A stretch of 64,000 nt of DNA from Clostridia bacterium (GTDB taxonomy: Bacteria; Bacillota; Clostridia; Christensenellales; CAG-138). Location: positions 31,116 to 95,115 of the forward strand of contig JAFWMS010000002.1 in assembly GCA_017545535.1 (NCBI GenBank), in the 5' to 3' direction. The notes under the pieces were generated by a model. It was not told where the DNA came from, did no database searches, and saw nothing but the letters and a program-made list of their open reading frames with translations. A program made the translations under genes and the position numbers. Of this stretch, positions 46,871 through 61,545 are shown one piece after another. Within the stretch, counting starts at the first letter, position 1. Each line of letters starts with the position of its first letter.

Positions 46871-48418
46871 ATGGGAAAAGCTTATTTTGTCGGCATCGAT
46901 ACCGGCACCAATTCCAGCAAGGGCGCTCTCATCGGCGAGCAGGGCGAGATTCTCGCCCTGCACAGCACGGAGCACAGCATGGAAAATCCCCAGCCCGGTT
47001 ACTACGAGCATGACGCCGAGCGCGACTGGTGGGGTGATTTCTGTACGATCAGTCGGGAACTGCTGCGCAAGAGCGGCGTGGACGCGAAGGACGTCAAGGC
47101 TGTCGGGATCAGCGCGCTCGGCGCAGATTGCGTTCCGGTGGACGAACATTGCCGCCCGCTTCGCAAAGCAATCCTCTACGGCATCGACGCGCGGGCCACG
47201 GATGAGATGGCTGAACTGACCGCGCTCTACGGGGAGGAGCAGATCCTGAAATGGTACGGCCGTCCGCTCTGCTCCAGCGACGTGATGCCGAAGATCCTGT
47301 GGATCAAGCGCAGGGAGCCGGAGGTCTACGCCAGGACGCACAAGTTTCTCACGGGATCGAGCTACATTACCGCCAAGCTGACAGGCCGCTATGTCGTGGA
47401 CCGTTTTCTCGGCCTGGCCAGCTTCAATCCGCTGTATGATCCGCAGACACGCAAGCCGGTTCCGGAGTACTGCGCGCCGATCTGCCGACCGGACCAGCTT
47501 GCCGAAATCCTCGAGGCGGCGGAGGTCGCAGGCACCGTGACGGCCGAGGCCGCCGCCGAGACGGGGCTTGCCGAGGGGACGCCGGTCATCACCGGAACGG
47601 ACGATTCGGGCGCCGAGGCGATCAGCTGCGGCGTCGTGGAGAGCGGGAAAATGATGCTGCAGCTGGGCTCGTCAGTCTACATGATCCTCGGCACAGACAG
47701 CCTGATCGACGACGAGCGGCTCTGGCGCGAGGAGTTCATCGTCCCCGGCTTATGCGATATCTCGGCCGGAACCAACACGGCGGGCAGCCTGACCAAATGG
47801 TTCCGCGACGAGCTGTTTCCGGACGCCCTTGCCGCCGAGCGCTCGGGCGGAGAAAACGCCTATCAGCGCATGTTGGAGGGCGTTGCGGAGATCCCGCCCG
47901 GCAGCGAGGGGCTGATCACGCTGCCCTACTTTGCCGGGGAGCGGACGCCGATCAACGACCCCGACGCCCGCGGCGTGCTCTTCGGGCTGACGCTGCAGCA
48001 TACGCGCGCGCATCTCTACCGCAGCGCACTGGAGGCGGTCGGCTTTTCCGTCAATCAGCAGATTCGAATCATGGAATCCCATCCCGAGGCGCGCATCGAC
48101 CGGATCATCGCCGTTGGCGGCGGCGCGCAGAATCCGATTTGGATGCAGATTATCGCCGACATTCTCGGCAAGGAGATCTCAACGCCGCAGGTGACGGTCG
48201 GCGCCTGCTACGGCGATGCGCTGATGGCGGCGCTGGGCGTCTCTTTTCCGGGCTTTGAGAACTATGCCGCGCTGACGCGCTATGTCCGCGCCGGCAGAAC
48301 TTACGCGCCCGATCCGAAAGCGCACGCGGCGTATGAGCAATATCAGGCAGTCTACGACGCGCTGTACGATTCTACAAAGGAACTGGCGCACAAGCTCAGT
48401 TCTTTTGTAAGAGGATAG
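46871..48418 (+). CDS. FGGY-family carbohydrate kinase
   Basis: ATG 46871 lies inside ORF 46667..48418. YFVGIDTGTNSSKGALI.. and ..VGGGAQNPIWMQIIADILG are FGGY signatures. Confidence 0.85.
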   Translation: MGKAYFVGIDTGTNSSKGALIGEQGEILALHSTEHSMENPQPGYYEHDAERDWWGDFCTISRELLRKSGVDAKDVKAVGISALGADCVPVDEHCRPLRKAILYGIDARATDEMAELTALYGEEQILKWYGRPLCSSDVMPKILWIKRREPEVYARTHKFLTGSSYITAKLTGRYVVDRFLGLASFNPLYDPQTRKPVPEYCAPICRPDQLAEILEAAEVAGTVTAEAAAETGLAEGTPVITGTDDSGAEAISCGVVESGKMMLQLGSSVYMILGTDSLIDDERLWREEFIVPGLCDISAGTNTAGSLTKWFRDELFPDALAAERSGGENAYQRMLEGVAEIPPGSEGLITLPYFAGERTPINDPDARGVLFGLTLQHTRAHLYRSALEAVGFSVNQQIRIMESHPEARIDRIIAVGGGAQNPIWMQIIADILGKEISTPQVTVGACYGDALMAALGVSFPGFENYAALTRYVRAGRTYAPDPKAHAAYEQYQAVYDALYDSTKELAHKLSSFVRG

Positions 48419-48711
48419 CATGGAAGAAACAGCACCTTCGTTTTGGAGGACAACCACTGGCTATGCCATTGGGAAAAAGTGCTTTAGCAATGGACAAAAA
48501 GAAAGCTCCCCATTTGAGTAGTTGAATAGTATGCACTCCTGTCGAACCATACATTACATTCTTAGGAGCACATGAAGCATGCGTTAAAAAAGTCAGATAT
48601 TTAGGGACAAATGTTTATTATGAAAAATGAGTGTGTGCCTTTGATGCCGTATAATCATTGCCTCAAAAATACAATCGTTACAGCTGAAATAATGGGTACT
48701 CTTTCAAAAAA

Positions 48712-49020
48712 TGCAGTCAAAAGTGCAGTCAAAACTCTTTGTAGCCCTGTTTTTGTGAAACAGGAAACAGAAAAAAGTCCCTAATTTAGGGACTTTTTTG
48801 GCCTCCCCGGCGGGATTCGAACCCACGGCCTTCCGCTTAGGAGTACTGTATTCGAAGGTAGCTGATAAAGCCAGACAGCGTCTAGGTTTTTTCAAAAAAA
48901 CCACTGAATTAGGTAAAAATAACGTTTGTTCACCATGAGAATTCTGCGAACTCTGCATCAGTTTGCTCACGCATTGTGCAGTCAAAATGCAGTCAAGTGC
49001 AGTCAAAAGTGCAGTCAAAT
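48712..49020 (-). repeat. Module copy 2 (attP-like): 2 direct repeats, AT-rich hairpin, intact-looking tRNA-Arg(CCU) 3' half, conserved spacer, 4 direct repeats
   Basis: TGCAGTCAAAAG/TGCAGTCAAAAC at 48712-48735. Hairpin AAAAAGTCCCTA/TAGGGACTTTTT at ~48770-48798. tRNA half at 48798-48842. TGCAGTCAA(A)n x4 at 48977-49020, all in the same orientation. Confidence 0.7.
48798..48842 (-). other. 3' half of a tRNA-Arg(CCU)-like gene (anticodon loop to CCA), no 5' half
   Basis: The minus strand reads CTCCTAA GCGGA AGGCC GTGGG TTCGAAT CCCGC CGGGGAG G CCA. This gives loop, anticodon-stem 3' strand, variable loop, T-arm, acceptor 3' strand, discriminator and CCA. The upstream sequence cannot form the acceptor, D or anticodon 5' strands. 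Confidence 0.65.
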
Positions 49021-49101
49021 TCAAACCCTCACATATCCTTTCACAGAGCGACTTCCAAGTATGTTTTACTGTTTGTTTTTTCTTCTAGAAGATTAACTGT
49101 A

Positions 49102-49130
49102 TGGACTGTTGCGCCTGTTCCTGATATACT
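49102..49130 (+). promoter_or_regulatory. Promoter of the 1235-aa gene
   Basis: TGGACT at 49102-49107, a 17-nt spacer, then extended -10 TGaTATACT at 49122-49130. SD aaaggagaa precedes ATG 49180. Confidence 0.5.
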
Positions 49131-49179
49131 ATGTTCATCATCCTTCATCTTTGACTATTAGACTGACAAAGGAGAAACT

Positions 49180-52100
49180 ATGTCAAAACCATTCCCCGAT
49201 ATAACATGGCCAGTCTTTGAAGTATGCAATGCGAATAAGACAAAAGCCTTTGAAGATATGACACGAAAGCTTTTTAATTCTTATTTGGCGGGAAATCAAA
49301 CGTTAGTTTCAGATGGGATTAATCCGGGAATTGAGGTATTGCCGGTTTTGGAACCTGAAGCAAAAGATGATGCGCAAAGAAGATGGATTAGTTTTCAATC
49401 TAAGTACTTTGAAAAAAACACGAATTATAAGGACATTCTGGATTCTGCAAAACAGATAGTTAAGCATTATAAAGGTAAACTTGATTTAGTGTATTTGTTT
49501 TGTAATAATTCCCTTAAGATCTCATGTGATGGATACAAATCAGTTAAAAATCTGCTTGCAGAGGCGGGAATAGAACTACACCCAATAACCAACGAAATGA
49601 TTCTTGATCTTGTTTCCAAGTATCCTGAAATATATAATTATTATTTTCGGCCAAGAGATATCCCCGATTGTTCTCATGATAATCAATCTAGTTTCACGAT
49701 TGATCAAATAGTGTATTCGCTGAAAAACAGCCTAGATGCTGGGAAAATGCCTCCGCAAGATCCTGCTCTTTTAGTTGGTCTTATTCAAGAGAAGCTTGAT
49801 GTTTGCCGAGGTTTTGTTCTTAATATGGAACTGGATCAATTAAAACAGGAATTAGAAAAACTATTTTCTCATGATTTATGCGGAGTTGAGGGAAGTGACA
49901 CCTTACTGTTTTATCAGAACATTCTGAATATACATGAAAGAAAACCCATTCAAAATACGAACACTGATTTGATGCATAATGCAGAAATTGAATGGTTGAA
50001 AGCATTTTATGAAAATACATATGCTATTTCATTTGAGGAGTTCAATAAATACTCGGATGAAATTAGAATTCTCGTAATAGACCAATTGTTTGTCACAAAG
50101 CATTGGAACACGATAATATCTCTTCATGATCAATCGCTTACTCTGGGGAGTGCATGGGAACAGATGGAGCTTTACTATGGCCTCTCACTCTTCAATCTGC
50201 AGCGTTATGAAGAAGCAAGTGCCGTATTACATGGTTTGTTTGAAAAAACTAAGTGTCCAGCGCATGAAATGTATTCTAAGTTTGCGGATATTCAAGTTAT
50301 AAACAGTTTGTTCAGAACAGGAATGAATGCAAATGCCGATATGCTTGCCGAACTGGTCTCTTCTTTAGATGCCTATAAATGCATTAAGCAATATCAAGCA
50401 TCTGATCTTTTGATAGCCTTGCTGACCTTGGAGTCGTATTGTTATCTTGGGTTATCAAAAAAAGAGTATTTGGAAAAGGCCATTTCAACATATGACTCTT
50501 TTTCTGAGAGTGTACGCCTTAATGATATCGTTCGATTCTACTATGCATTATCCGTTGAACTTAATGGGAACATAGATAAAGCGCTAGAACTATATGAAAC
50601 GATGGAATGGAAAGATGACGAAACCATTGCGTATAGATACCTGTTCTGCCTAATCATGATCGGGCAAACCGAAACAGCCTATCAGAAATTCTATCTATTA
50701 CATGATGTTGCAAAAACAGAAAGGATATATGCACTTTCTTTGCTTGCTCTTCATAAAACAGACGTACAGATGGCTCGAAGTCTAGCAAAGAAGTGGCTTG
50801 AAGGGCATTCCAGCGATTTTTTGAGTATTGTTTCATTCATCGTGTATGTGGAAGATCGCGAGATTATTTCTTCGTTGATAATGCCACAATTACATGAGCT
50901 TATGACAACAGAAAGAATATCTTGTTTACCTTTTCGTCAACGTATTGAACTGATTATTTGGTTAGCTCAAAACATTGAAATTGAATTGATGGAACAAGTA
51001 CTTAAAACGATTGATGATGTTAATAACCTGAATGAATCGACAATAGTAGGAATATACCGGTCTTTAGCAGCAGCATGTGAAAAACCGAATGTTTTTATCA
51101 ACCCGATTCTTGAACCAACTACTATAGCCAAGTCAATTGAAACAATTACTGACAGATTCCTTAATGCAGGGATAAACAGAGAATTGTTTTTGCGAATCAA
51201 AATAGCGTGTGTCAATGCCAGACAAAGTTATATTAGCGCATTACAGTATTCAAAAGAATTGTTTGAACTTACTCAAGACGAAACAACCGCTAAAAACATA
51301 ATTAGTATTCTGGTATTACGTAAAGATAGTAATGAAACTGATTATCACCCATATATTGACATTTTGAAGGATTCTGAAGAACCTGACCAATGCATTACTG
51401 TTGCAGCAGGTTTATTGATGATAGGAAAGGAACAAGAAGCTGATTTATACGCATATAAAGCTATTTACTATTTAAACGGAAAAGATGACTTCAGTATCTA
51501 CAATAGTTTCTTTCAACTTGATAGTTTCAAAATGAGGTGGTTACAGGAGGATGAAGTCGTGCCCATTCGTTCTTCAAAGGGAAATGTGATTGTTACCCTC
51601 GAAGCATCTTCTTCAACTACCCAAGAAGCAAAAATGGACGTATGCCTGGATTCAGAAAAAGAATTCTCGCAAGACGGAAATAGAAGCATGGGTGTCTGCC
51701 ATATAAACTCAACAGATACAGATTATCTCAAAATCAAAAGTGCTGGACTGAATCAAGTTATAAAGCTAAAAAACGGAACATTTCAAGTAAAAAGAATCAT
51801 CCCCAGGAAAAAATTCTGCAGGGCTTTTGTGTTTAGCAAATTGCAGGCAAACCAAGAGTATTTTTCTGGGGTGATTATTTCCACGTTGCCTGAAAACCCA
51901 AAGGAAGCAATAGAACAGCTCCGAAAGCTTAGCGACAGGTCTGAACAAGCAAATACGAACCTGAAGATGTATCATTTTGAAGATAGTACCAATCTTGGCC
52001 TGCCAATTGAAGTTGTTGGATTTATGGATTATGATCGCTATCTTGGTACATCAAAGTATTTATTATTTCAACCTGATGAAGCTTTTTATTCTGGTGAAGT

Positions 52101-52887
52101 TGTTTACAGGTTTGATAGTGGAGAAGGTTTGAAGTATGTCATTACACTTTCAACTCTTGTGCTACTTAGCATATTAAATAGACTTGATGTTCTGGATGTA
52201 ATTAAGCAGAACATTATTATTCCAAAGAGTTATCTTCCTTTTTTTCATGATTTATTTGAAAAGGCACTTAATGATCAAGCAATGGACGCCAAAACGCTCT
52301 ATTTCGATGGAGATAAAACCATATTGTCTGACCAAGACCCCACTATCCCCGAAATATGGGAACGGATAGTACGTTTCTGCGACGATTGCGAAACTTATGA
52401 AATAATAGATCAAGAACGAATAGATTATTACATTCAAGAGTCATTAAGAGGTGAAGACTTATTATCAGCATTCAAATTGAACGTTATTCAATTAGATGCT
52501 TTGATACTATCAAGCAGAGAGTCTGCGATGTATCTATGTGATGATCTCTTTTTTCGTAAATTAGCCAACTGGGCTGGCATCAAACACTGTAATACAGCTT
52601 CGCTCCTATTGCTACATGACGATCAAGAATATATCGATTCATTTGTGAAGGAACTATCAAAAACGAACTATATATATGTACCTTTGGCAGGGGTTTCATT
52701 CAGCACAATCCAAGCGATGCAGGATGATATGTTAACTGGTAAAAGAAAAAAAGAACTGAACGCAGGGTGGATCCATCAATACTATGCTGCAAGAGAAGCT
52801 GTTCTAAACGAATTAATTAAGGATGAATTGTTCCATATGCAAATAGTGGATAATACCGATGAGTCAGTGACGGATGATAATAGTTAA
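49180..52887 (+). CDS. Orphan 1235-aa protein: Mrr-like PD-(D/E)xK nuclease head, long TPR-like helical region, GreA/B-C-like beta domain, PIN-like C-terminal domain (candidate defence/conflict effector)
   Basis: aa 23-145: FEDMTRKLF..SDGINPGIEV..WISFQSKYF..LVYLFCNN..IELHPITNEMILDLV follows the Mrr_cat pattern. aa ~300-780 are helix-repeat rich. aa 791-875 have GreA C-terminal-like spacing. aa 985-1130 (KYVITLSTLVLL .. QLDALILSSRESAMYLCDDLFFRKLA) are PIN-like. No GxxxxGK[ST] is present. Confidence 0.55.
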   Translation: MSKPFPDITWPVFEVCNANKTKAFEDMTRKLFNSYLAGNQTLVSDGINPGIEVLPVLEPEAKDDAQRRWISFQSKYFEKNTNYKDILDSAKQIVKHYKGKLDLVYLFCNNSLKISCDGYKSVKNLLAEAGIELHPITNEMILDLVSKYPEIYNYYFRPRDIPDCSHDNQSSFTIDQIVYSLKNSLDAGKMPPQDPALLVGLIQEKLDVCRGFVLNMELDQLKQELEKLFSHDLCGVEGSDTLLFYQNILNIHERKPIQNTNTDLMHNAEIEWLKAFYENTYAISFEEFNKYSDEIRILVIDQLFVTKHWNTIISLHDQSLTLGSAWEQMELYYGLSLFNLQRYEEASAVLHGLFEKTKCPAHEMYSKFADIQVINSLFRTGMNANADMLAELVSSLDAYKCIKQYQASDLLIALLTLESYCYLGLSKKEYLEKAISTYDSFSESVRLNDIVRFYYALSVELNGNIDKALELYETMEWKDDETIAYRYLFCLIMIGQTETAYQKFYLLHDVAKTERIYALSLLALHKTDVQMARSLAKKWLEGHSSDFLSIVSFIVYVEDREIISSLIMPQLHELMTTERISCLPFRQRIELIIWLAQNIEIELMEQVLKTIDDVNNLNESTIVGIYRSLAAACEKPNVFINPILEPTTIAKSIETITDRFLNAGINRELFLRIKIACVNARQSYISALQYSKELFELTQDETTAKNIISILVLRKDSNETDYHPYIDILKDSEEPDQCITVAAGLLMIGKEQEADLYAYKAIYYLNGKDDFSIYNSFFQLDSFKMRWLQEDEVVPIRSSKGNVIVTLEASSSTTQEAKMDVCLDSEKEFSQDGNRSMGVCHINSTDTDYLKIKSAGLNQVIKLKNGTFQVKRIIPRKKFCRAFVFSKLQANQEYFSGVIISTLPENPKEAIEQLRKLSDRSEQANTNLKMYHFEDSTNLGLPIEVVGFMDYDRYLGTSKYLLFQPDEAFYSGEVVYRFDSGEGLKYVITLSTLVLLSILNRLDVLDVIKQNIIIPKSYLPFFHDLFEKALNDQAMDAKTLYFDGDKTILSDQDPTIPEIWERIVRFCDDCETYEIIDQERIDYYIQESLRGEDLLSAFKLNVIQLDALILSSRESAMYLCDDLFFRKLANWAGIKHCNTASLLLLHDDQEYIDSFVKELSKTNYIYVPLAGVSFSTIQAMQDDMLTGKRKKELNAGWIHQYYAAREAVLNELIKDELFHMQIVDNTDESVTDDNS

Positions 52888-52927
52888 AATATCACTCTAT
52901 CATTTACATATCGATCTTTAGACAATA

Positions 52928-53573
52928 CTATGCAAGTATTGGCACAACGCTCGTCTGTAAATCCGGTATTATACTAGAGATATCCGTATCTGGAGATAGC
53001 CATTCCTCTGCCCTACTGTAAGGCACAATAACCGGCATGCGCGGATGAATCTCCCGGATGTTGGATGCAGCATCCTGTGACAGTATAGAGAAGCAGGGCA
53101 GTCGCTGCTGATCGGATGTCTTAATGTACAGACCTGCCAAGTACAAAGGTTCTCGATTCTCAGCATAGAAAGCGTATTTATCTTTTTTGTTCTTGTCTGT
53201 CTTATGCCACTCAAAGTAGCAGGAGGCCGGAATCAGGCAGCGCCGGTCGTTGATGCTGGTGCAGAATAGCGCCTTTTGCGGTTTCGTTTTTCAGCTCCAG
53301 AGTTGCGGTTTCACTGCGGGTGTTAAATACCAGCATGCCTTTGGTTGGATGATTGAAACCCCATTGCATGGGGAACGCTCCAATCTTCCGATGAGCCGCG
53401 GATGGGGCAATGACCGGGGCTATACAGATTCCTTGATCCAAGAACGCGATGTTCATGAAGAGAAATTCCGCAAACCAAGCAGGAAATTCCACTCTGATTG
53501 GGAGCTTGCCAATTTCTGCCATGGTGGCGATTTGGACGAAGATTGATGACTTAATAATTGTATTTATTTCCAC
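52928..53573 (-). pseudogene. Decayed SOS-response-associated peptidase (SRAP/YedK-like) gene
   Basis: The upstream frame gives APVIAP..FPMQWGFN..VFNTRSETA. The downstream frame gives RRCLIPASCYFEW..LYLAGLY..FSILSQDAASNIREIHPRMPVIV. The frameshift is near the A5 run at ~53,290. The N-terminus reads KSSIF where the catalytic MCGRF is expected, and there is no Met start. Confidence 0.7.
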
Positions 53574-53602
53574 CGCCCCGCAGGGGATGACTGCGGGGCG
53601 GT
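53572..53602. other. Boundary hairpin H1
   Basis: ACCGCCCCGCAG-gggatga-CTGCGGGGCGGT, a perfect 12-bp stem, lies exactly at the AT-rich to GC-rich transition. Confidence 0.8.
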
Positions 53603-53653
53603 GCTATGTCAGCCGGAATATAGCCGCCGCGCCATTGATTTTTCCCGGGGAGG

Positions 53654-53662
53654 TGATATACT
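53654..53662 (+). promoter_or_regulatory. Extended -10 (TGaTATACT) upstream of the MATE gene
   Basis: Sequence match only. Confidence 0.4.
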
Positions 53663-53696
53663 TTTGTCAGCAAATCCATCCCGAGAGAGCGGCGAC

Positions 53697-55052
53697 ATGC
53701 AGAGTACCGACCACAAAACCAAACAGTATCTGATGACGGAGGGGCCCATCCACCAACGGGTCCTGCGCTACGCGATCCCGGTGTTCATCGGGTATCTGTT
53801 CCAGCAGCTGTACAACACCGCCGACGCGCTGATCGTGGGGAACCTGGTGGGGCGCAACGCCCTGGCCGCCGTGACCAGCACGGGCTCCATCGTCTATTTG
53901 GCCGTGGGCACCTTCACCGGGTTCTCCATGGGCGCGGGCATCGTGATCGCCCGGTATATCGGCGCGGAGGATTCGGAGAAGACCTCCCAGACCGTCCACA
54001 CGGCCGTGGCCATGGGGCTGTTCTTCAGCGTGCTCTTCACGGCGCTGGGGGTCCTGTTCTCGCCGGTGATCCTGCGTGCCATGGGTACGCCGGAGGACGT
54101 GTTCGCCGACGCGGCCCTGTATCTGAAGATCTATTTCGCAGGCTGCACAGGCCTGGTCATGTACAACATCTTCGTGGGCATCCTGCAGGCCAGCGGCGAC
54201 TCCACCCATCCCCTCTATTACCTCATCACCAGCTCCGCCATCAACGTGGTCCTGGACATCACCCTGATCGGCGTCTTTCACATGGGCGTGGACGGGGCGG
54301 CTCTCGCCACCATCGTGTCCCAGGGGATCGCCGCGCTGCTGGTCATGATCCGCCTGCTGCGCCAGTCCGGGGACATCCGCATCTCGTTCCGCAAGATCGG
54401 GTTCCACTGGCGGCGGCTCCGGGAGATCGTGCTGTTCGGCCTGCCCACAGCGGTGCAGAACACGGTGATCGACTTTTCCAACGTGCTCATTCAGTCCTAT
54501 ATCAACTCCTTCTCCGCCGCTGCCATGGCGGGCATCGGCGCCTATGCTAAGGTGGAGGGCTTCGCCTTCTTGCCGGTCACGGCTTTCTCCATGGCCATGG
54601 CCACCTTCATCTCCCAGAACATCGGCGCCCAGAAGCTGGACAGGGTGAAGGAGGGCATCCGCTTCGGCCTGCTCTGCTCCGTGGCGGCTGTGGAGGTCGT
54701 GGGGATCATCATGTTCCTCTTCGCGCCCCAGCTGGTGGCCGCCTTCAACCAGGACCCCAACGTCATCGCCTACGGGGTGCTCCGGGGCCGGGTCTGCTCC
54801 TTGTTCTTCTGCCTGCTGGGCTTTTCCCACGTGTCCGCCGCCGTGTTCCGGGGCCTGGGCAAGCCCATGGTGCCCATGCTGGTCATGCTGATCTGCTGGT
54901 GCGCCGTCCGGGTGCTGGTGCTGATGACCATCGGGCAGATCTACCACAACATCCTGCTGGCCTGCTGGATCTACCCTATCACCTGGGGCATGAGCACCGT
55001 CGTGGACCTTGTCTATCTCGGCCACGTGCGCAAGAAAGGGTACGCCCTGTAG
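53697..55052 (+). CDS. MATE-family transporter
   Basis: The likely start is ATG 53697 (ORF from 53601). RVLRYAIPVFIGYLFQQLYNTADALIVGNLVG is a MATE signature, with 12 TM helices. Confidence 0.8.
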   Translation: MQSTDHKTKQYLMTEGPIHQRVLRYAIPVFIGYLFQQLYNTADALIVGNLVGRNALAAVTSTGSIVYLAVGTFTGFSMGAGIVIARYIGAEDSEKTSQTVHTAVAMGLFFSVLFTALGVLFSPVILRAMGTPEDVFADAALYLKIYFAGCTGLVMYNIFVGILQASGDSTHPLYYLITSSAINVVLDITLIGVFHMGVDGAALATIVSQGIAALLVMIRLLRQSGDIRISFRKIGFHWRRLREIVLFGLPTAVQNTVIDFSNVLIQSYINSFSAAAMAGIGAYAKVEGFAFLPVTAFSMAMATFISQNIGAQKLDRVKEGIRFGLLCSVAAVEVVGIIMFLFAPQLVAAFNQDPNVIAYGVLRGRVCSLFFCLLGFSHVSAAVFRGLGKPMVPMLVMLICWCAVRVLVLMTIGQIYHNILLACWIYPITWGMSTVVDLVYLGHVRKKGYAL

Positions 55053-55145
55053 CGGGCAAAGCCCTTCAGTCTGGTAAAAAACTAAAGCAAAAAGGATACG
55101 CCCTGTGAGCGGCGTATCCTTTTCTGCAATCGTATTTGCGCTGCT

Positions 55146-55787
55146 TTAGTCCAGCAATCCCTTGTCGATGATCTGGAAGTTGGCCCGGTGGATATAGAGG
55201 GCCTTGCCGTCGATCATGAGCTTGGTGAACTTGGGCAGATCCTCCTGGACCTCCCAATAGACCTTGTTCCCGGAGAAAGCGTAGATGGGCGCGCCCATCT
55301 GGGACTTGATGACCACCACCATGGGCTTGCCGAAGGCGTTTTTGATGCTGTTCACCTTGCCGGCGATCAGCACCGAATCCATGATCCCCGACGAGGAGCT
55401 GTCGATGTCGTCCAGATAGAATTCATACTCCGGGGAAAGCCGCGTGTCGTAGAAGATGCAGGTGTCGCCGCAGGAAATGAGCTGCTTCCCGTCGATAGTT
55501 ATGGTGATGACGGAGCTCAGCGTCTTGGTGGTGAGCCAGCCGTTGGAATCCGAGGAATAGGACGTCTCCTCCACCACGTTGTTGTCGATGTCGATCTTCT
55601 CCCCGTGGGTCCTGAGAGTGCGGATGCCCATGTTGTCGAAGATGTCAATGTTGTATTCGTTTCCGAAGATGCTGCCGTGCAGGTCGTGGATGCCGCTTTT
55701 GAGCATGGAGCAGCCGGCTTGTCCCACCGCCAGCAGCAGAATCAGGACCAGTGTCGCGATCCTCCGTTTCATCTTTCCGCTTTTCAT
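55146..55787 (-). CDS. Lipoprotein of unknown function
   Basis: Lipobox LLLAVGQAGC. The 213-aa protein is beta-rich. Confidence 0.6.
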   Translation of the reverse strand: MKSGKMKRRIATLVLILLLAVGQAGCSMLKSGIHDLHGSIFGNEYNIDIFDNMGIRTLRTHGEKIDIDNNVVEETSYSSDSNGWLTTKTLSSVITITIDGKQLISCGDTCIFYDTRLSPEYEFYLDDIDSSSSGIMDSVLIAGKVNSIKNAFGKPMVVVIKSQMGAPIYAFSGNKVYWEVQEDLPKFTKLMIDGKALYIHRANFQIIDKGLLD

Positions 55788-56729: not shown

Positions 56730-56737
56730 GTTAGCGT

Positions 56738-56820
56738 TTAGGGTTCCGTATCGGGCGGGTTGTCGTCCGCCTCGGCGGGTTGGGCAGTCTTTGGGGCGGG
56801 CATTTTAGGCTTGTGTTCTT
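56738..56820 (-). pseudogene. 3'-terminal remnant (~26 codons plus stop) of a second serine-recombinase gene
   Basis: The minus frame reads EHKPKMPAPKTAQPAEADDNPPDTEP*. The intact recombinase ends EKRKPKMAAAKAAQPPEPNDDPPAPEL*. The DNA is alignable to 59710-59795, and homology is lost at ~56,822. Confidence 0.75.
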
Positions 56821-56907
56821 ACCAACAGGCGATATATCAAGGTTTCCCCATATTCTTTTCCCTGAAATAGAAAATTACCAATTATCCTATACATAACGCT
56901 TTTAAAC

Positions 56908-56916
56908 TGCTATAAT
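56908..56916 (+). promoter_or_regulatory. Extended -10 (TGcTATAAT) upstream of the DUF262 gene
   Basis: Sequence match. SD taggagaag precedes ATG 56962. Confidence 0.45.
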
Positions 56917-56961
56917 TTAGCAAAGAGAGACATGTAGTTTTTCAGAATATAGGAGAAGAAA

Positions 56962-59655
56962 ATGAACGCACAAAAAGCACTTATCACGAACATTTTTAAT
57001 GGTGCAACATTGATCGAAGTTCCATTTTTTCAAAGGCCTTACGTTTGGAATGATGAACTGTGGGCAAAGTTTATTGAAGATATGGAGTTTATCGTCTTAA
57101 CCCATAAAACTCATTTCCTGGGAGCTATTATTCTTAAGGACGCTGGTCAACCAAAACCCGGAGACAAAGTTGCACAGCACCACACTATTGTTGATGGACA
57201 ACAACGGCTTACTACTTTTCTCCTCTTTCTGAAAGCGCTATGCCTTAAGCAGAATCAGATGACCTTTTTTGATTTTCAGTTTAGGATTATGGGGCAAGAG
57301 ATTGCATTGCGTCATGGGAAGAACGATAGGGATGCGTTTGAAAAGGCTATTTCTACGACAACAACTGCAAAAATCGAGAATCCAGAGCCTGGGTCAAGAA
57401 TAATTGAAGCTTTCAACTACTTTTTAGATCATGTGGATGCTTCGAAGTTGAACATTATGGAAATCATTATGAATGCACAGTTCGTCAGGATCGACTTGGA
57501 TATAAATGAAGACGAACAGCAGATTTTTGATACGATAAACTCCTTAGGGGTTAGGCTCACTACCGCCGAGCTGTTGAAGAATTACTTCTATTCTTGGCAG
57601 GATGTGGCGCTGTATGAAAAGTCTTGGGTGGAAGTGTTCGAAAAGGACAACGATACGCGCGCTTATTGGAACCAAGAATTTGAAATGGGCCGCATGACAA
57701 GAACACTGATCGATGTGTTCTTTGATTCTTATTTTCAGTTGTTTGTACAAGATTCCAAGTACAAAGTGTCCACCGAGGACAAGATAGCATACTCCCGGTT
57801 GGAGCATCTGGCTAAGTCCTACCAAGACTTTATCAAGGTTTACTGCAACGGTGACAAGCAGGTAATGCTCGGACCGATGCAACAATACGCGAACAAATTC
57901 CGGGAGATATTCGATCCTGCTTGTGTCGATCGTCAGATGCCTAAGCATCCCGGCATTGAGCGAATCAATGTCATCATTTTCGGGTTGAAGAACGCCACGC
58001 TGATTCCGTACATCCTCTATCTGGCCTGTAACGTGGAAGATTCGGCAGAACACAACAAGATGCTGGAAATCCTCGAAGCTTACATCATGCGGCGGATGGT
58101 CATACGGGCAACGACTAAAAACTACAACAATCTGTTCGTTTCGCTGATACTTAACAAGATAAACACGTCGGAAGCTCTGCTTTCAGCGTTAAAGAAGATG
58201 GGCGATGGGACCACCTATGTGCCGTCCGATGAAGAGCTGTTGGATGGGTTCAGGACGAGTAAGCTGAGCAACCTTCAGGCAAAGGGTGTTATCTACTATA
58301 TCGAATCCGGCATACGGTCTCCCAAGAGCGCCGTCGCCCTTTTAGGCTTTAGGCAATACAGTTTGGAGCACCTTATGCCAAGAAAATGGAGGAATCATTG
58401 GGCGCCCTGCGCCTCTGAGGATTTGGCTCGAGTCAGAGATCAAAAGCTTCAAACGCTCGGCAATTTCGCCATCATTACGCAGTCATTGAACACGTCAATC
58501 AGCGATGCAGATTGGCAGACAAAGAAGGCCGGAAAGAAAGACAATCCGGGTTTGGATCAATGTGCCGCTGGATTGATAACTATGGAAAATGTACTCTCTG
58601 AAAACACTTGGAGTGAGAGCAACATCAGTTCCAGAGCAGACTGGTTATGGGAAAACGCAAAACAGCTTTGGAAAAGTATCATGCCGGCAATTCATGATGG
58701 AACTATTTCTTCCGGGAGTTTGTTTCAATCTACTAACACTATAGAATTGCGAAAACGTTATTGGGCCTACGCACTGCCAGTTATAAAGAAGGAAAACTAT
58801 TATAGGGGAACTTTTTCAAACTGCAATCCACGAGGAACAGGATATATTAGTGGATACTTTGGACTAAGTGGTTTTAGGGTTGATTGCGTAGCGAATTATG
58901 ATGTAGCACGAATAGATTTTTATCTTGGGAATAGTGATGTTAAAAAGAATAAAGCTGCTTTCGATACTTTATTCTCTCATAAGGACGATATCGAAAAAGC
59001 ACTTGGTGTACAATTATCCTGGGATCGTGCTAATGGGAATGTTGCATCTTGGATGATCCACCACCTATATGGTGTGAGCATAGGAAACGAGCAGGATTGG
59101 CCGAAGATAGCTGAATTCCACGCTAAATGGAGCCGGAAGATTTGTGACGTGATGTTGCCTTATCTTCTTTCTCCAGAAATGAAAAAGCCTTTGGAAATCG
59201 GAGCATGGACCAGAGAATGGGCTAATCAGAAAGAAGGCATAGCGTTTGACGTTGGAAATTGCAGTCTCCATTATACTCGTTTTACCACTGCTGCTATGAC
59301 TGAGATTTTGCCTAATCTAAAGGATGTTCCGAGCGCTTGGAACACGGATTCGCATTATTTCTATGAAATAAACACTATGTCTTCCGGAAAAATACTGATG
59401 CAGATGGCGATAAATTCTAAGAATATTACAAGCGACTATCGTGCCATCTGTGATGCGATCCAGAAGGTCTATCCATCAAAGCATAATCCCTCCAAAGCTA
59501 ATACGGATGAATGGGAGTATCGCGTACCTTTCATGACAAAACCGCTTAATGCTACGAAAATGGAGAAAGAAGATGTATTCAAGCAACTTGACCAATGGCT
59601 AAATGAAGTGAAATCCTTTGAAAAAGACTTAAAGCAAAAACTTGAAAATCAATAA
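56962..59655 (+). CDS. GmrSD-like DUF262 + DUF1524 (His-Me finger) protein with C-terminal DUF4268-like extension (type IV restriction-like)
   Basis: DUF262: EVPFFQRPYVWNDELW..FLGAIIL..VDGQQRLTTF. DUF1524: SLEHLMPRKW..LGNFAIITQSLNTSISDADWQTKK. The tail RKRYWAYALPVIK..FDTLFSHKDDIEKALGVQLSWDR is DUF4268-like, followed by ~170 aa I could not assign. Confidence 0.75.
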   Translation: MNAQKALITNIFNGATLIEVPFFQRPYVWNDELWAKFIEDMEFIVLTHKTHFLGAIILKDAGQPKPGDKVAQHHTIVDGQQRLTTFLLFLKALCLKQNQMTFFDFQFRIMGQEIALRHGKNDRDAFEKAISTTTTAKIENPEPGSRIIEAFNYFLDHVDASKLNIMEIIMNAQFVRIDLDINEDEQQIFDTINSLGVRLTTAELLKNYFYSWQDVALYEKSWVEVFEKDNDTRAYWNQEFEMGRMTRTLIDVFFDSYFQLFVQDSKYKVSTEDKIAYSRLEHLAKSYQDFIKVYCNGDKQVMLGPMQQYANKFREIFDPACVDRQMPKHPGIERINVIIFGLKNATLIPYILYLACNVEDSAEHNKMLEILEAYIMRRMVIRATTKNYNNLFVSLILNKINTSEALLSALKKMGDGTTYVPSDEELLDGFRTSKLSNLQAKGVIYYIESGIRSPKSAVALLGFRQYSLEHLMPRKWRNHWAPCASEDLARVRDQKLQTLGNFAIITQSLNTSISDADWQTKKAGKKDNPGLDQCAAGLITMENVLSENTWSESNISSRADWLWENAKQLWKSIMPAIHDGTISSGSLFQSTNTIELRKRYWAYALPVIKKENYYRGTFSNCNPRGTGYISGYFGLSGFRVDCVANYDVARIDFYLGNSDVKKNKAAFDTLFSHKDDIEKALGVQLSWDRANGNVASWMIHHLYGVSIGNEQDWPKIAEFHAKWSRKICDVMLPYLLSPEMKKPLEIGAWTREWANQKEGIAFDVGNCSLHYTRFTTAAMTEILPNLKDVPSAWNTDSHYFYEINTMSSGKILMQMAINSKNITSDYRAICDAIQKVYPSKHNPSKANTDEWEYRVPFMTKPLNATKMEKEDVFKQLDQWLNEVKSFEKDLKQKLENQ

Positions 59656-59677
59656 ATGATATTGAAATAGAAAACAC

Positions 59678-59701
59678 GCCCCGCAGGTCTCCCTGCGGGG
59701 C
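59678..59701. other. Boundary hairpin H3 (also the likely terminator of the recombinase gene)
   Basis: GCCCCGCAGG-tctc-CCTGCGGGGC lies 9 nt beyond the recombinase stop. Confidence 0.8.
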
Positions 59702-59709
59702 GCTTGTGT

Positions 59710-61545
59710 TTATAGCTCCGGGGCGGGCGGGTCGTCGTTCGGCTCGGGGGGTTGGGCGGCCTTGGCGGCGGCCATTTTGGGCTTGCGCTTCTCGTAGTAA
59801 TAGCGGCGGTCGTACTCCTGCCGGCGGCGGCGCTTCTCGGCGGCCAGCTCCTCCTCGGTGAGGGGGACGGGCGGCTCCTCCTCGGGCAGATCCACCTTGC
59901 CGATGTGCTTGAGCATGATCTCCACGGGCTGGATCTTCATGCCGCCCACCCGCCGGGGGCCGTGGACCAGGATCCTGTCCACGAATTCCAGGATCATTTC
60001 GTTGGTCAGCACCGAGAAATCCGTGTACCTTTTGGCCAGGAACAGGAACTGCTCCGCCCGGTCCGTGTCCTTGTCGAAGGCGGCGAGCTGCCCTTGGTCG
60101 TCCGCCAGGGCCTTCTGTAGGTCCGCCTGCTCCGCTTCGTACCGGGCGGCGATCTGCTCATAACGGGCGAGGGGCAGGCGGTTCAGGGCGTAGTCCTCGT
60201 AGAGCTTCACGGAAAGCCGGTCCAGCTCGTCGATCCGCTTCTGGGCCTTGCGGATGCGCTGGCGGACGGCCTTGGCGTCGGCGGTCTGGCGCAGGGCGGA
60301 GGCCTCCCGGACCCGGTGCAAAAACTCCGTCCGGTTCCGGATGGCGAAGGTGGCGGCGGTGCGAATAGCGTCCAACGTCAGGGAGCGAAGGGCCTGGGTG
60401 GTGATGTAGTGGGAGAAGCAGGTCTTGGTTTCCCGCCGGGAGGACATGGTGTAGGTCCTGCACTGGTAGGAGTCCGCGGGCAGCAGCCCTGTCACGGGGT
60501 CGGGGGTGAAGGTGTGCCATTGGTTCTTGGCCATGCCCCGGTGGTTGTACATTTTGCTGCCGCAGTCCGCGCAGAACACCAGCCCCGTGAACACGTTGGG
60601 CTCGCCGGTGGTGTCCGTGCGGCGGACGGTCTTGCGGATCTGCTGCACGGCGTCGAAGGTGCTTTGATCTATGATGGGCTCGTGAGTATTCTCGATGATC
60701 TGCCACTGGCTGGGGTCGCAGTAGACCTTGGGGCTCTTATAGGTCTCCTTGTCGGTCCGATGGTTCACGGTGTGGCCCAGGTACTCCGGCCGGGAGAGCA
60801 TCTTCGCCACCGTCCGGGGGGCCCAGTCGTAGGGGCGATCCAGGTCCGTGGCGTAGAGTTCCAGGCCGTGGGTGTGCATATAGTAGGAGGGGCGCTCTAT
60901 CTTCCGCTCCCTAAGCTTGTTAGCGATGACGGCGGGGCCGTAGCCCTTCAGGGCAAGGGCGAAGACCTCCCGCACCACGGCGGCGGATTCCTCGTCGATC
61001 AGCAGGTGGTGCTTCTGCTCCGAGTCCTTTTTGTACCCGTAGAGCACCTTGTTGGAAAAGGGGATGTTCGCCCGGCTCCGGGCCAGGTAGGACTGCTTCT
61101 GCTTGCGGCTGGCGTCCCTCAAATACCACTCGTTCATGATGTTGAGGAAGGGGGCGAACTCGCCGCTCTGCCGATCCGCGCTGTCCACGCCGTTGGTGAT
61201 GGCGATGAACCGGACCCCGTGCTGGGGAAAGAACACCTCCGTGTAGAAGCCGGTCTGCAGATAGTCCCGGCCCACCCGGCTCATGTCCTTCACCAGCACC
61301 GCCGCCACCTTCCCACTTTCGATGTCCGCCACCAGCCGCTTCCAATCCGGGCGCTCAAAGTTGCCGCCGGTGTAGCCGTCGTCGGTGTAGTGGGCGCAGT
61401 TCGAGAAACCATGCTGCGCGGCATAGTCCTCCAACATGCGCTTTTGCATCACGATGGAATTGCTGTCCCCCAGCTGCTCGTCGTCCCGGGACAGGCGCTC
61501 GTATAGGGCTGTAATCTGTTCTTGTTCTGTCTGCCTGACGCTCAT
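59710..61545 (-). CDS. Large serine recombinase (resolvase catalytic domain + recombinase/zinc-ribbon + coiled-coil tail)
   Basis: 611 aa with the catalytic region ALYERLSRDDEQLGDSNSI..VLVKDMSRVGRDYLQ. Cys pairs CADCGSKM..CRTY lie in the zinc-ribbon region. Confidence 0.9.
   Translation of the reverse strand: MSVRQTEQEQITALYERLSRDDEQLGDSNSIVMQKRMLEDYAAQHGFSNCAHYTDDGYTGGNFERPDWKRLVADIESGKVAAVLVKDMSRVGRDYLQTGFYTEVFFPQHGVRFIAITNGVDSADRQSGEFAPFLNIMNEWYLRDASRKQKQSYLARSRANIPFSNKVLYGYKKDSEQKHHLLIDEESAAVVREVFALALKGYGPAVIANKLRERKIERPSYYMHTHGLELYATDLDRPYDWAPRTVAKMLSRPEYLGHTVNHRTDKETYKSPKVYCDPSQWQIIENTHEPIIDQSTFDAVQQIRKTVRRTDTTGEPNVFTGLVFCADCGSKMYNHRGMAKNQWHTFTPDPVTGLLPADSYQCRTYTMSSRRETKTCFSHYITTQALRSLTLDAIRTAATFAIRNRTEFLHRVREASALRQTADAKAVRQRIRKAQKRIDELDRLSVKLYEDYALNRLPLARYEQIAARYEAEQADLQKALADDQGQLAAFDKDTDRAEQFLFLAKRYTDFSVLTNEMILEFVDRILVHGPRRVGGMKIQPVEIMLKHIGKVDLPEEEPPVPLTEEELAAEKRRRRQEYDRRYYYEKRKPKMAAAKAAQPPEPNDDPPAPEL

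Follow-up and report, generated by a model that had tools for sequence, protein, structure and literature searches.

The window, by which the whole analysed stretch of 64,000 nucleotides is meant, is a segment of chromosome with about 60% G+C that carries housekeeping genes such as those for gyrase/topoisomerase, ypeB and peptidases. Its minus strand reads, from 48843 to 48799, CTCCTAAGCGGAAGGCCGTGGGTTCGAATCCCGCCGGGGAGGCCA. This is the 3' half of a tRNA-Arg(CCU), from the anticodon loop to CCA, referred to here as fragment B and regarded as the core of a recombination site. Fragment B is identical (45/45) to positions 32-76 of the tRNA-Arg(CCT) genes called by ARAGORN in L069, L074 and L064, and intact tRNA-Arg(CCT) genes occupy the equivalent position in L064, L069, L074 and L077. 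The TACAGTA found 5' of the fragment is no continuation of the tRNA, the sequence 5' of C32 being unrelated, and neither a 5' acceptor strand, nor a D-arm, nor the 5' strand of an anticodon stem is present in the window. ARAGORN called no tRNA gene in the whole window; Rfam gave no match in it at gathering score and, in E-value mode over 48400-49100, no match to the tRNA family (RF00005). The first-pass annotation, which had described a minus-strand tRNA-Arg(CCU) part that starts in the anticodon loop and has no 5' half, was right on both points, its coordinates (48842-48798) being displaced by a single base. The best scores of the same E-value search, Thr_leader (28 bits vs a threshold of 55) and the SpF41 sRNA (26.6 bits vs 52), were set aside as weak chance matches driven by the terminator. 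This terminator, already noticed in the first-pass annotation as a hairpin after the tRNA part, lies at 48771-48799 on the minus strand and comprises 13 pairs followed by a T run. It is borne by the element and would serve the tRNA rebuilt upon integration. At other loci its stem shows compensatory changes (GTCCC/GGGAC vs GCCCC/GGGGC).

Fragment B is flanked on both sides by short repeats, all in the same orientation on the plus strand. The left arm (arm X, 48712-48733) holds two TGCAGTCAAA units with a 12-bp period, the TGCAGTCAA copies starting at 48712 and 48724. The right arm (arm Y, 48977-49019) holds four units, TGCAGTCAAA, TGCAGTCAAG, TGCAGTCAAA and TGCAGTCAAA, which start at 48977, 48988, 48998 and 49010, with spacings of 11, 10 and 12 bp. 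The TGCAGTCAA(A) repeat occurs in 7 exact copies in the window vs 0.43 expected, a number reached in 0 of 100 shuffles. The arrangement of two plus four repeats that had been proposed is therefore real, with small corrections: the left pair lies 65 bp from the tRNA 3' end and the first right-hand repeat 133 bp from the core (about 63 and 135 bp in the first-pass annotation), and the spacings range from 10 to 12 bp instead of 11 to 12. Between the left arm and the terminator there is a 36-bp box (48734-48770, plus strand) with a small inverted repeat, CCTGTTT..AAACAGG. Across 8 distinct contexts this box is conserved, and homology starts about 10 nt before the left pair and continues through the tRNA fragment. 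On the other side, the spacer of the right arm (48844-48976, plus strand), which belongs to the cassette designated E_B, keeps several blocks conserved among 9 distinct cassettes (AAAGCCAGAC, AATTAGG(G), TTGT.(T/C)AC.ATG, ACTCT and GCTCA.GCA). Over 9 modules, the majority-base fraction is 0.94 in the repeats, 0.78 in the spacer and 0.54 beyond the last repeat.

A second module (24706-24946), composed of a terminator, a tRNA-Arg fragment and 3 repeats, had escaped the first-pass annotation. Its terminator hairpin (24706-24735, minus strand, AAAGCGCCACCCGATGGGTGGCGCTTT) lies on the ypeB-side flank and belongs to the original chromosomal tRNA-Arg(CCU) locus. The same terminator layout downstream of ypeB is repeated in L047 and in the rumen MAG locus L055, and the full order of ypeB, terminator, fragment and arm is also found in rumen MAGs. 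The leftmost core, fragment A (24737-24781, minus strand), is an older and decaying tRNA-Arg(CCU) 3' half that matches the 3' part of the intact tRNA at 41/45 positions. Its mutated T-loop, GATCCGAGCCAAC, is common to L047, L053 and L056, in which the ypeB flank has only 83% identity with that of the window, so this junction must be old. The right-hand arm (arm Y) of the next cassette, E_A, follows at 24782-24946 on the plus strand, with a conserved spacer and the repeats TACAGTCAAA at 24915, TGCAGTCAAA at 24926 and TGCAGTCAT at 24938; homology to other modules ends right after the last repeat. A 114-aa ORF adjoining this arm has an unannotated PHROG match.

The cargo of E_A (about 23.5 kb, 24950-48418), as delimited by Pfam and gene calls, encodes GntR/UTRA regulators, an SBP_bac_5 protein with an Opp-type ABC transporter, SIS, an esterase, PfkB, an amino-acid permease, amidohydrolases, MatE, BtpA and an FGGY kinase. 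Neither recombinase nor transfer genes occur in this cargo, and the integrase HMM was negative on it. From the FGGY stop codon, an AT-rich stretch (48421-48560) extends to a CTTAGGAG junction. This stretch may be a decayed arm, terminator and tRNA fragment; its local alignment with the fragment B junction scored 30, which is not significant against 21 +/- 4 in shuffles, and the same-species contigs L074 and L096 differ there in sequence, with repeats of the GTTAGCA type among others. In the array model described below, E_A is expected to have its own arm and tRNA fragment in this stretch, and the weak resemblance counts against that model. In a test for a third, decayed tRNA fragment at about 48524-48568, only CTTAGGAG and the homology downstream of it proved solid, the upstream similarity being not significant. 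The CTTAGGAG anticodon-loop remnant (48561-48568, minus strand), also absent from the first-pass annotation, is the left boundary of a remnant cassette, E_C (48569-48711, plus strand), which was recognised by comparison with L074 and L073 and from which all cargo is missing. Window positions 48561-48651 are 87% identical to 577-667 of L074, where the counterpart comes after an intact tRNA fragment and forms the start of a 10-kb cassette. In E_C, a spacer from the left end of a hydrogenase-type cassette, as in L074, is fused to sequence that normally precedes the left repeat pair; L073 has this remnant too, with 99.4% identity. The cargo-less remnant (48569-48798 when the arm is included) supplies the left arm of the fragment B junction. 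Fragment A, fragment B and the CTTAGGAG junction at 48561 are all in one orientation, and the arrays of L068, L062 and L074 have this arrangement too.

To the right of fragment B, the cargo of E_B comprises a gene (49180-52887, plus strand) for a 1235-aa protein, set in a block of 35% G+C and probably a defence gene. Its matches to TPR and PIN (PIN-TPR-GreABC) are weak and below the Pfam threshold, and no family was assigned to it in PADLOC, NCBIfam or PHROGs. The identical protein is encoded in a second chromosomal context (L047, L051 and L052). A SRAP (YedK-like) pseudogene (52928-53523, minus strand), detected by Pfam SRAP on a 72-aa piece, forms the end of an exchangeable segment that runs from 48844 to about 53628. 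Further to the right, an independent serine-recombinase/relaxase element starts near 59670; the window contains its relaxase and a large serine recombinase at 59710-61545, both missed in the first-pass annotation.

In metagenomes, the CTTAGGAG of the anticodon loop is followed at once by the start of at least 9 unrelated right-hand neighbours, and likewise by the 5' halves of intact tRNAs; all breakpoints lie immediately to the right of 48843. The earlier proposal that the tRNA 3' half is an integration core is supported by these junctions. The E_B of L047, L051 and L052 is 98.7-99.7% identical to that of the window, with no left pair and with a ypeB flank that is only 83% identical; in these loci, the tRNA fragment to the left of the identical right side has a different T-stem, with compensatory changes. 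The sequence shared by L047 and the window covers at least 48794-55532, at 98.7% identity. The left arm occurs elsewhere (L073, L074 and L069) next to other right neighbours or to an intact tRNA. On its left side L073 is 99.4% identical to the window, and 48844-53628 is replaced by an unrelated 2 kb. No attachment site was found at the right boundary of this alternative segment, so some of the turnover is not site-specific. The fragment B junction is found in the same chromosomal context in several independent assemblies. A whole cassette of about 10 kb stands between two modules in each of L068, L062 and L074, with cargo that is metabolic only; in L074 and L068 only 5-25 bp separate the cargo genes from the left pair, and the array of L074 ends in an intact tRNA, beyond which comes a Mur ligase gene. 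The cargo of complete cassettes is confined to metabolism or defence, and no integrase or conjugation pseudogenes were found in the five that are complete or nearly complete.

The repeat motif is also found at integrase genes. In 18 viral contigs, and in metagenome contigs such as L060 and L076, the final ~35 nt of a tyrosine-integrase ORF contain a TGCAGTCAA pair. Such tandem pairs at integrase 3' ends thus occur in about 20 unrelated contigs and at least four distantly related integrase lineages (Pfam Phage_integrase and Phage_int_SAM_3, with identity as low as 24-40%). In these contigs, 2-3 further copies follow about 175 bp downstream. The motif-adjacent integrases have an N-terminal extension in addition to SAM-like and catalytic domains, a composition typical of integrases that read arm-type sites, and no Pfam arm-binding domain reached threshold in those tested. 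In the Faecalibacterium phage Roos the order is int, a GTAGTCAA pair at the int 3' end, a terminator, an antisense tRNA-like core and a second GTAGTCA pair. At the level of sequence, these findings support the view that the TGCAGTCAAA repeats behave as arm-type sites of tyrosine integrases, and we infer that they bind the integrase N-terminal domain. A literature search with the TGCAGTCAAA motif returned only unrelated primer and eukaryotic sequences and no relevant paper.

No tyrosine integrase was detected in the window, in agreement with the first-pass annotation: tblastn with a related integrase gave a best E-value of 1.6, and an HMM built from 9 diverse integrases had no match at E<=10 among six-frame ORFs. 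Applied to 17 array loci, the same HMM found nothing except one unrelated element in L062, an integrase-bearing neighbour whose arms are TGTAGTAAA, unlike the TGCAGTCAAA of the window. Of the array ends that could be inspected, neither the one next to ypeB nor, in L074, the one next to the tRNA and the Mur ligase gene has a tyrosine recombinase. Scans of viral contigs for the pair plus tRNA, for core plus arm and for the exact core gave no matches, and when the 580-bp module was compared with phages and plasmids by BLAST, nothing but its 45-nt tRNA part was matched, in two records, one being another fragment without these repeats (L085) and the other an intact tRNA-Arg adjoining GTTAGCAAA repeats (L086). 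Since no integrase with both TGCAGTCAAA arms and a tRNA-Arg(CCU) core was found in any collection searched, a trans-acting integrase partner is hypothetical. The position held by the integrase in phage relatives is taken in the window by the FGGY kinase gene. Upstream of the left pair, a 57-aa frame ends in ..YNHCLKNTIVTAEIMGTLSKNAVKSAVKTL.. (translation), and a short open frame ending ..NAVKSAVKTL overlaps the pair; the region of the 57-aa frame showed no similarity to integrases by tblastn or HMM, and to see in it the last ~30 codons of an integrase is speculative.

The anatomy of the modules, the link between their motif and integrases, the breakpoints in the core and the lack of integrases in the cassettes examined were all directly observed, and the module is probably an internal attachment site within a tandem genomic-island array at the chromosomal tRNA-Arg(CCU) of a Clostridia bacterium from gut or rumen (Oscillospiraceae-like). 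An island seam at tRNA-Arg is a known kind of structure, seen here in an unusually clean form. According to this mechanism, a family of tyrosine integrases would recombine in the anticodon loop of tRNA-Arg(CCU), and the elements of the family would carry a split attP: to one side of the core, a ~190-bp arm that terminates in 2-4 TGCAGTCAAA arm-type sites; to the other, two TGCAGTCAAA, the 36-bp box, the terminator and the tRNA 3' half. Each integration would rebuild the tRNA with the 3' half of the element and push the previous 3' half inwards, so that repeated integrations would produce a row of cassettes separated by tRNA fragments. An internal junction would then consist of the P' arm of one cassette and the P arm of the next, and would resemble an attP only because each neighbour contributes one P-type arm. 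The window would accordingly be ordered as ypeB, terminator, fragment A, E_A (23.5 kb, metabolic), E_C, fragment B and E_B, continuing to the right. As its two arms come from two different neighbours, the fragment B locus is best seen as an internal site of the array and not as a stand-alone attP; the attP-type architecture of the first-pass annotation survives in its core, arms, integrase-linked motif and Roos-like layout, and has to be given up as a self-contained site. Present-day excision or integration would have to use an integrase in trans, whether from a phage, from an ICE or encoded outside the window.

The same loci could also be read as fossil scars, in which the modules are dead and strain differences arise from homologous recombination between ~350-bp modules and from deletions, with no integrase acting. 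We consider this unlikely, though it deserves to be taken seriously. Homologous exchange is expected to scatter junctions, and for this reason the single-nucleotide junctions count against it: all of them, at least nine, lie at the same nucleotide after CTTAGGAG, even with a different T-stem to the left. Fragment B is pristine, as are the two arms; in 8-9 independent contexts conservation is higher in the repeats than in the spacer, and the terminator pairing has been kept by compensatory changes. However, fragment A is decaying (41/45), E_C resembles an internal deletion that is not site-specific, the replacement in L073 lacks an attachment site on the right, the arms, being direct repeats, are of sufficient length for homologous exchange, and the cognate integrase was not found in the window, the array loci or the collections searched.

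It is rather doubtful that E_B is the left end of an ordinary large element that extends from 48844 to beyond 67 kb, with its own integrase and an intact tRNA at an unseen right end, the left pair being the tail of an older neighbour. In phage relatives the integrase adjoins the rebuilt tRNA, which for E_B would be to the right of the window. Between 49020 and 64000, and in the next 3 kb, there is neither a left-arm pair nor tRNA sequence, and the 98.7% identity between L047 and the window extends over 48794-55532 at least, both of which suit such an element. The contigs that carry the relaxase all end about 3.8 kb past it, near 67 kb, short of the right end of E_B and of this genome's intact tRNA, so the integrase of the right-hand element may lie outside the window. 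Nevertheless, this account leaves the left arm unexplained and an FGGY kinase gene where the integrase is expected, and the complete cassettes of L068, L062 and L074 have both ends and no integrase. In addition, the segment 48844-53628 is exchangeable alone, as in L073, and the serine-recombinase/relaxase element that begins near 59670 is independent.

A role of the TGCAGTCAAA repeats as transcription-factor sites that regulate the 1235-aa gene, with no part in recombination, is very improbable: the four repeats are indeed followed, after ~85 bp, by a promoter-like site (49102-49130) and, after ~160 bp, by the ATG at 49180, yet promoter-like sites are no more numerous than in shuffled sequence, in at least 9 cassettes the genes behind these repeats are unrelated, the repeats always stand at a fixed distance from a tRNA-Arg fragment with homology ending right after them, and the motif lies inside the integrase 3' ends of unrelated phages. 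Hardly credible is the idea that the window derives from an episome, phage or plasmid and that the module is its functional attachment site, since a core with arm sites on both sides does have attP architecture but the two arms have separate histories and the module sits in a ~60% G+C chromosome segment with housekeeping genes, in the same context in several independent assemblies.

For the tandem array at tRNA-Arg(CCU), the closest known concept is the tandem accretion of ICEs or IMEs with cis-mobilizable elements (CIMEs), of which ICESt1/ICESt3-CIME in Streptococcus thermophilus is an example. In such accretion, elements stack at the 3' end of one target gene by way of an attachment site next to a resident element (PMC5704250). 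CIMEs are described as decayed ICEs or IMEs. Tandems and remnants are also known in Faecalibacterium/Oscillospiraceae genomes (PMC12084326). As with CIMEs, the stacked elements of the array keep attachment sites, lack integrase and transfer genes, and form hybrid sites at their internal junctions. Unlike CIMEs, they have compact conserved ends (~190 bp and ~125 bp), a cargo of plain metabolism or defence and no visible decay pseudogenes, the only hints of descent from an ICE or IME being the 114-aa ORF next to the right arm of the second module and the short frame ending ..NAVKSAVKTL, and a partner ICE or IME with matching arms was not found in the collections searched. The tycheposons of Prochlorococcus are tRNA-adjacent islands built by successive integrations in which older elements are pushed inwards, with partial tRNAs and degenerate elements left behind and with adaptive and defence cargo (bioRxiv 10.1101/2020.12.28.424599). 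However, tycheposons are defined by their own integrase and often by replication genes, neither of which is carried by the cassettes of the window, and their host phylum and integrase lineage are different.

Compared with integron arrays, the likeness lies in ordered, promoter-poor cargo units that lack a recombinase and have their own sites, the newest presumably at one end. This likeness is functional only, as intI, attI and Pc are all missing beside the array, the sites are of lambda type, with a double-stranded core and arms, and not attC hairpins folded from single strands, and the cassettes of the window type are multi-gene units of 3-24 kb. A closer match in architecture is provided by the attP of phage Roos (PP479939.1) and by the IMG/VR prophage family of L006, which have the same order and spacing as the window module: a GTAGTCAA or GCAGTCAA pair with an 11-12-bp period, a terminator, an antisense tRNA(-like) core, a spacer of 70-135 bp and 2-4 repeats in the same orientation. 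In Roos and the L006 family the first pair is inside the integrase 3' end, whereas the window has the FGGY kinase gene and a 290-bp non-coding stretch instead; the arm motif of Roos has a single base changed, and another tRNA (Lys-CTT by ARAGORN) forms its core. No experimental study of the attP sites of Roos or of the L006 family was found in the literature. The integrases of lambda, Tn916 and mycobacteriophage L5 use a distinct N-terminal domain to read short, repeated arm-type sites (9-11 bp), which flank the core at a distance from the crossover. Like these attP sites, the module of the window has a core that is a segment of the target, repeats that flank the core and recombinants that break within it; unlike them, it has no adjacent integrase gene.

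The cassettes might, as a tentative extension of the array model, be dedicated integrase-free cargo units and not decayed elements, which an integrase of a phage or ICE acting in trans would capture, stack and exchange at tRNA-Arg(CCU). Such units could be delimited by a compact split attP, one end having ~190 bp with TGCAGTCAAA sites and the opposite end ~125 bp together with the tRNA 3' half. If this proved true, it would amount functionally to an integron-like system that runs on a lambda-type, tRNA-targeting recombinase and distributes metabolic and defence modules of 3-24 kb among Oscillospiraceae of gut and rumen. Should an integrase in trans still move the cassettes, they would offer a route for the spread of multi-gene metabolic and anti-phage modules, and standard mobile-element detectors would miss them, because these look for integrase or conjugation genes. 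The TGCAGTCAA(A) motif, together with the variants GTAGTCAA, TGTAGTAAA and GTTAGCAA at the same tRNA, provides a handle for finding further junctions and for pairing integrases with their sites. The module is the mark of a recombination hotspot, through which strains of abundant Clostridia of gut and rumen come to differ in gene content. Contigs with the same FGGY kinase protein, 100% identical in the DNA of its 3' part, continue into at least four structures (the window type, L073, L074 and L096), and the 1235-aa TPR/PIN gene is near-identical between genomes whose flanking core gene is only 83% identical.

The locus at 48712-49020 is probably an attachment junction inside a tandem array of islands that lack integrases and are stacked at tRNA-Arg(CCU). 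The first-pass annotation had described it as an attP-like locus without an integrase; the architecture of a core with arm-type sites was borne out, and its status is here revised from a free attP to a junction within the array. The core is the tRNA-Arg(CCU) 3' half at 48843-48799 on the minus strand (fragment B, CTCCTAAGCGGAAGGCCGTGGGTTCGAATCCCGCCGGGGAGGCCA), which opens on the first anticodon-loop base (anticodon CCU), ends in the encoded CCA and is identical at 45 of 45 positions to the 3' part of the tRNA-Arg(CCT) called by ARAGORN in the comparison loci L064, L069, L074 and L077. The bases 5' of the fragment do not continue a tRNA, ARAGORN called no tRNA in the whole window, and Rfam gave no match to the window at gathering score. 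A terminator-type hairpin of 13 pairs and a T run follows directly (48771-48799). The repeat TGCAGTCAA occurs on the plus strand at 48712 and 48724 (the left pair) and at 48977, 48988, 48998 and 49010 (the right arm), with a seventh copy at 24926, against a mean of 0.43 copies per window in shuffled sequence; the annotated layout of tRNA half and repeats was right to within one base. Separately, the minus strand of 48767-48865 shows a sub-threshold Rfam match to the Streptococcus sRNA SpF41 (26.6 bits vs a gathering score of 52), whose consensus holds a tRNA T-arm and then a terminator; that family may itself be a tRNA-fragment attachment-site remnant.

Comparison gives good support to the reading of a core with arm-type sites on both flanks, since the same repeats are found at the ends of integrase genes in viral contigs and in one complete phage. 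Viral contigs, when scanned for two TGCAGTCAA copies 1-4 nt apart, gave 42 loci, and in 18 of them the pair lies inside the last ~35 nt of a tyrosine-integrase ORF of ~300-440 aa, with the C-terminus ..YTHFG..DKLEDYYNAVKMQSN.. and the Pfam domains Phage_integrase, Phage_int_SAM_3 and Phage_int_M. Two to three extra copies are located ~175 bp downstream of the integrase-end pair, and several of these loci carry an antisense tRNA or tRNA fragment 60-90 bp past it. The same arrangement is present in distant integrases, namely L009 and L039 (26% identity) and, from other environments, L060 and L076. The complete genome of Faecalibacterium phage Roos has the whole layout, integrase included: its integrase CDS ends in GTAGTCAAAAGGTAGTCAAG and is followed by a terminator, an antisense tRNA-like sequence and GTAGTCAATCGGTAGTCAC, 226 bp past the first pair. 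No relevant paper with the arm motif was found in the literature searched. In marine metagenomes (L058, L059, L063, L067, L070 and L075), a conserved ...AACGCCTAATTATGAGGTGCGGT-TGCAGTCAAATTGCAGTCAA... stretch was noted ~80 bp away from intact antisense tRNAs with other identities, with no long ORF through the pair; in these unrelated bacteria, too, the same arm motif may be used without an integrase.

The two sides of the junction have separate partners. The surroundings of a 1235-aa gene that begins just past the right arm are as in the window in L043-L046 and L049, whereas L047, L051 and L052 have another left side, with a MarR regulator, a flavin reductase and a radical-SAM gene. The identity of these three contigs to the window (98.7-99.7%) begins within the tRNA fragment, and they share the anticodon-loop segment TTCCGCTTAGGAG and all sequence to its right. 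To its left, the T-stem is another, compensatory allele (GCGCG/CGCGC vs GTGGG/CCCGC in the window), the terminator is different and no left repeat pair is present; between L047 and the window, identity in the ypeB flank is only 83%. Because the right side is shared and the left sides differ, the four-repeat arm and the 1235-aa gene must move as one, having joined different resident sequences through a crossover within the anticodon loop. L073 is 99.4% identical to window 48191-48844, continues with an unrelated 2 kb in which another gene replaces the 1235-aa gene, and rejoins the window at 53629; thus, the left side of the window is also found with other right partners.

The array extends well beyond this junction. 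A second module (24706-24946), located just downstream of ypeB, has a terminator and a tRNA-Arg fragment that matches at 41/45 positions (four substitutions), together with a homologous spacer and three repeats. Its arrangement recurs in L047 and, by genome scan, in four rumen MAGs; since these diverged genomes share the mutated T-loop of the leftmost fragment, that junction must be old. A metagenome scan for the pair and the tRNA yielded 23 loci, of which 13 belong to this Clostridia family. In a first group (L064, L077, L069 and the second site of L074), the pair, a 36-bp box (48734-48770 in the window) and the terminator precede a complete tRNA-Arg(CCU); in a second, the same left side precedes a tRNA fragment and a new right neighbour. 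Over all loci, at least nine unrelated right neighbours start exactly after CTTAGGAG. Each of L068, L062 and L074 has a whole ~10-kb cassette between two modules, and the L074 array terminates in an intact tRNA adjoining a Mur ligase gene. The chromosome carries a row of cassettes running from ypeB to the tRNA, with tRNA fragments between them. Each internal junction has the P'-type arm of the left cassette and the P-type arm of the right one, and it resembles attP because its two arms come from neighbouring cassettes. The rebuilt tRNA-Arg(CCU) of L064 (3593-3669) and of L077 (277-353) is hybrid and has a G1-G72 mismatch, a 5' half beginning GTCCCCG being set against an element-derived 3' acceptor strand CGGGGAG, which suggests a donor element from a host with a different tRNA allele.

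The cassette ends were compared by alignment of nine distinct right-hand and eight distinct left-hand ends. Homology of the right ends runs from the core via the blocks AAAGCCAGAC, AGTAATTTAGGGAAAAAT, TTGT.TACTATGC, CACTCT and CTCA.GCA to the repeats, and ceases within a few bases of the last one. The left ends become homologous ~10 nt ahead of the pair (TTTCAAAAAG) and continue with the 36-bp box, which holds a small inverted repeat, the terminator, with compensatory changes (GTCCC/GGGAC vs GCCCC/GGGGC), and the tRNA fragment. The majority-base fraction is highest in the repeats (0.94), falling to 0.78 in the spacer and 0.54 past the last repeat. The left arm of the junction belongs to a cargo-less remnant cassette, E_C (48569-48798), because a cassette left end joins there directly to the sequence that normally precedes the pair. 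Window 48561-48651, made up of CTTAGGAG and a further 83 bp, shares 87% identity with the left end of the hydrogenase cassette in L074, where it comes after an intact fragment; in the window this left end runs for ~85 bp before the join. Most simply, E_C arose by internal deletion. The FGGY 3' end is 100% identical in L074 and the window, with divergence right after the stop codon, and 48421-48560 bears only a weak resemblance to an arm, terminator and fragment.

The claimed absence of a tyrosine integrase from the window was confirmed both by tblastn with a related integrase and by an HMM of nine diverse integrases against all six-frame ORFs. Within the window, the cargo of cassette E_A (24950-48418) comprises GntR/UTRA regulators, an Opp-type ABC transporter, SIS, esterase, PfkB, an amino-acid permease, amidohydrolases, MatE, BtpA and an FGGY kinase. 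It opens with a 114-aa ORF (24950-25294) that starts 4 nt past the last repeat of the second module, matches only the unannotated phrog_27283 (E = 4e-6), and is present in every same-species contig and in no other array locus. The L074 cassette carries an amidohydrolase, two Fe-hydrogenase-like proteins, a SpoIIE phosphatase, an Fe-alcohol dehydrogenase and a flavodoxin, and that of L068 a lactonase, a TRAP transporter, a carboxylase subunit, LysR, PrpF and aconitase; in both, a cargo gene stops 5-25 bp from the left pair, so there is no space for an integrase. Across 17 array loci, the integrase HMM found nothing except one element in L062 (2800-4100; also in L065 and L079), which uses the same core as integration site, at the anticodon-loop position of tRNA-Arg(CCU), but has two TGTAGTAAA arm repeats and a tyrosine integrase of 382 aa that shares 30% identity with the L006 type. 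These repeats are similar to the arm motif of the Tn916 type. A third arm motif, GTTAGCA(A), lies beside tRNA-Arg in Subdoligranulum variabile (L086) and the same-species contig L096. Evidently, several integrase families target this anticodon loop. Repeats of the (T)GTTAGCA(A) family, at L086 5700-6000 (OY725843.1), the L096 tail and L074 306-345, are partly inverted (TTGCTAACATTTGTTAGCAA) and are found next to tRNA-Arg(CCU) or downstream of the FGGY gene; beside its intact tRNA-Arg gene, L086 contains a stray 5' half of that tRNA.

The core is a tRNA-Arg 3' half at which the junctions of many variants fall at one position, and the arms, conserved in cassettes without recombinases, contain a motif that overlaps integrase genes in other loci. 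The proposed enzyme is a tyrosine integrase whose N-terminal domain would bind the arm sites; it would assemble on the two arms and the anticodon stem-loop, with strand exchange inside the anticodon loop. Integration into the intact tRNA would add new cassettes at the tRNA-proximal end, and recombination of one core with another would release one or more cassettes in a circle bearing a complete attP. The integrase would have to come from elsewhere, supplied by a phage or ICE with matching arm specificity or by a gene past 67 kb; no such phage or ICE integrase was found in the collections scanned, and the right end of cassette E_B (from 48844 rightwards) is beyond reach of the contigs, which all stop near 67 kb. 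The array fits the published picture of tandem accretion, in which an incoming element integrates at an attachment site flanking a resident one, including CIMEs, residents whose attachment sites are retained after the loss of integration and transfer genes (PMC5704250). Tandems and remnants are reported to be common in the related Faecalibacterium (PMC12084326), and Prochlorococcus tycheposons form islands by successive tRNA-targeted integrations that leave partial tRNAs (bioRxiv 10.1101/2020.12.28.424599). The array is set apart from known systems by its uniformly integrase-free state, cassettes with compact, well-kept ends being found for at least nine cargo types; a trans-mobilized, functionally integron-like cassette system is a more novel but less likely reading.

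The chromosome has ~60% G+C, with a block of 35-37% at about 49-53 kb whose single gene is the 1235-aa one (49180-52887). The protein has sub-threshold Pfam matches only (a PIN-TPR-GreABC PIN domain at residues 990-1130, and TPR) and no family in PADLOC, NCBIfam or, informatively, PHROGs; it is likely an uncharacterised anti-phage defence protein. With every residue the same, it is encoded on 21 metagenomic contigs, in two chromosomal contexts. The right edge of the low-G+C segment holds a frameshifted remnant (52928-53523) of an SRAP (YedK-like) gene, a type often found on mobile elements. The window further encodes a GmrSD-type restriction enzyme, a Phd/Fic pair and a mobilizable element that covers 59670-64000 and extends in L080 to about 67 kb; this element has a large serine recombinase (59710-61545; Resolvase, Recombinase, Zn ribbon and DUF4368), a 63-aa ORF, a MobA/VirD2-type relaxase, MobC/NikA, Fic and a sigma-70 region-4-like HTH protein. 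All metagenomic contigs break at one point ~3.8 kb past the relaxase, suggestive of a repeat or of variation between strains at that site. Finally, the slot between the Phd/Fic pair and the serine recombinase (56730-59670) differs from its counterpart in L048 (7777-10910), holding a GmrSD/DUF4268 restriction gene in the window vs a McrBC-like pair (AAA_5/McrB_lid and McrBC) between flanks 94-98% identical; this looks like defence-gene exchange at a fixed slot.
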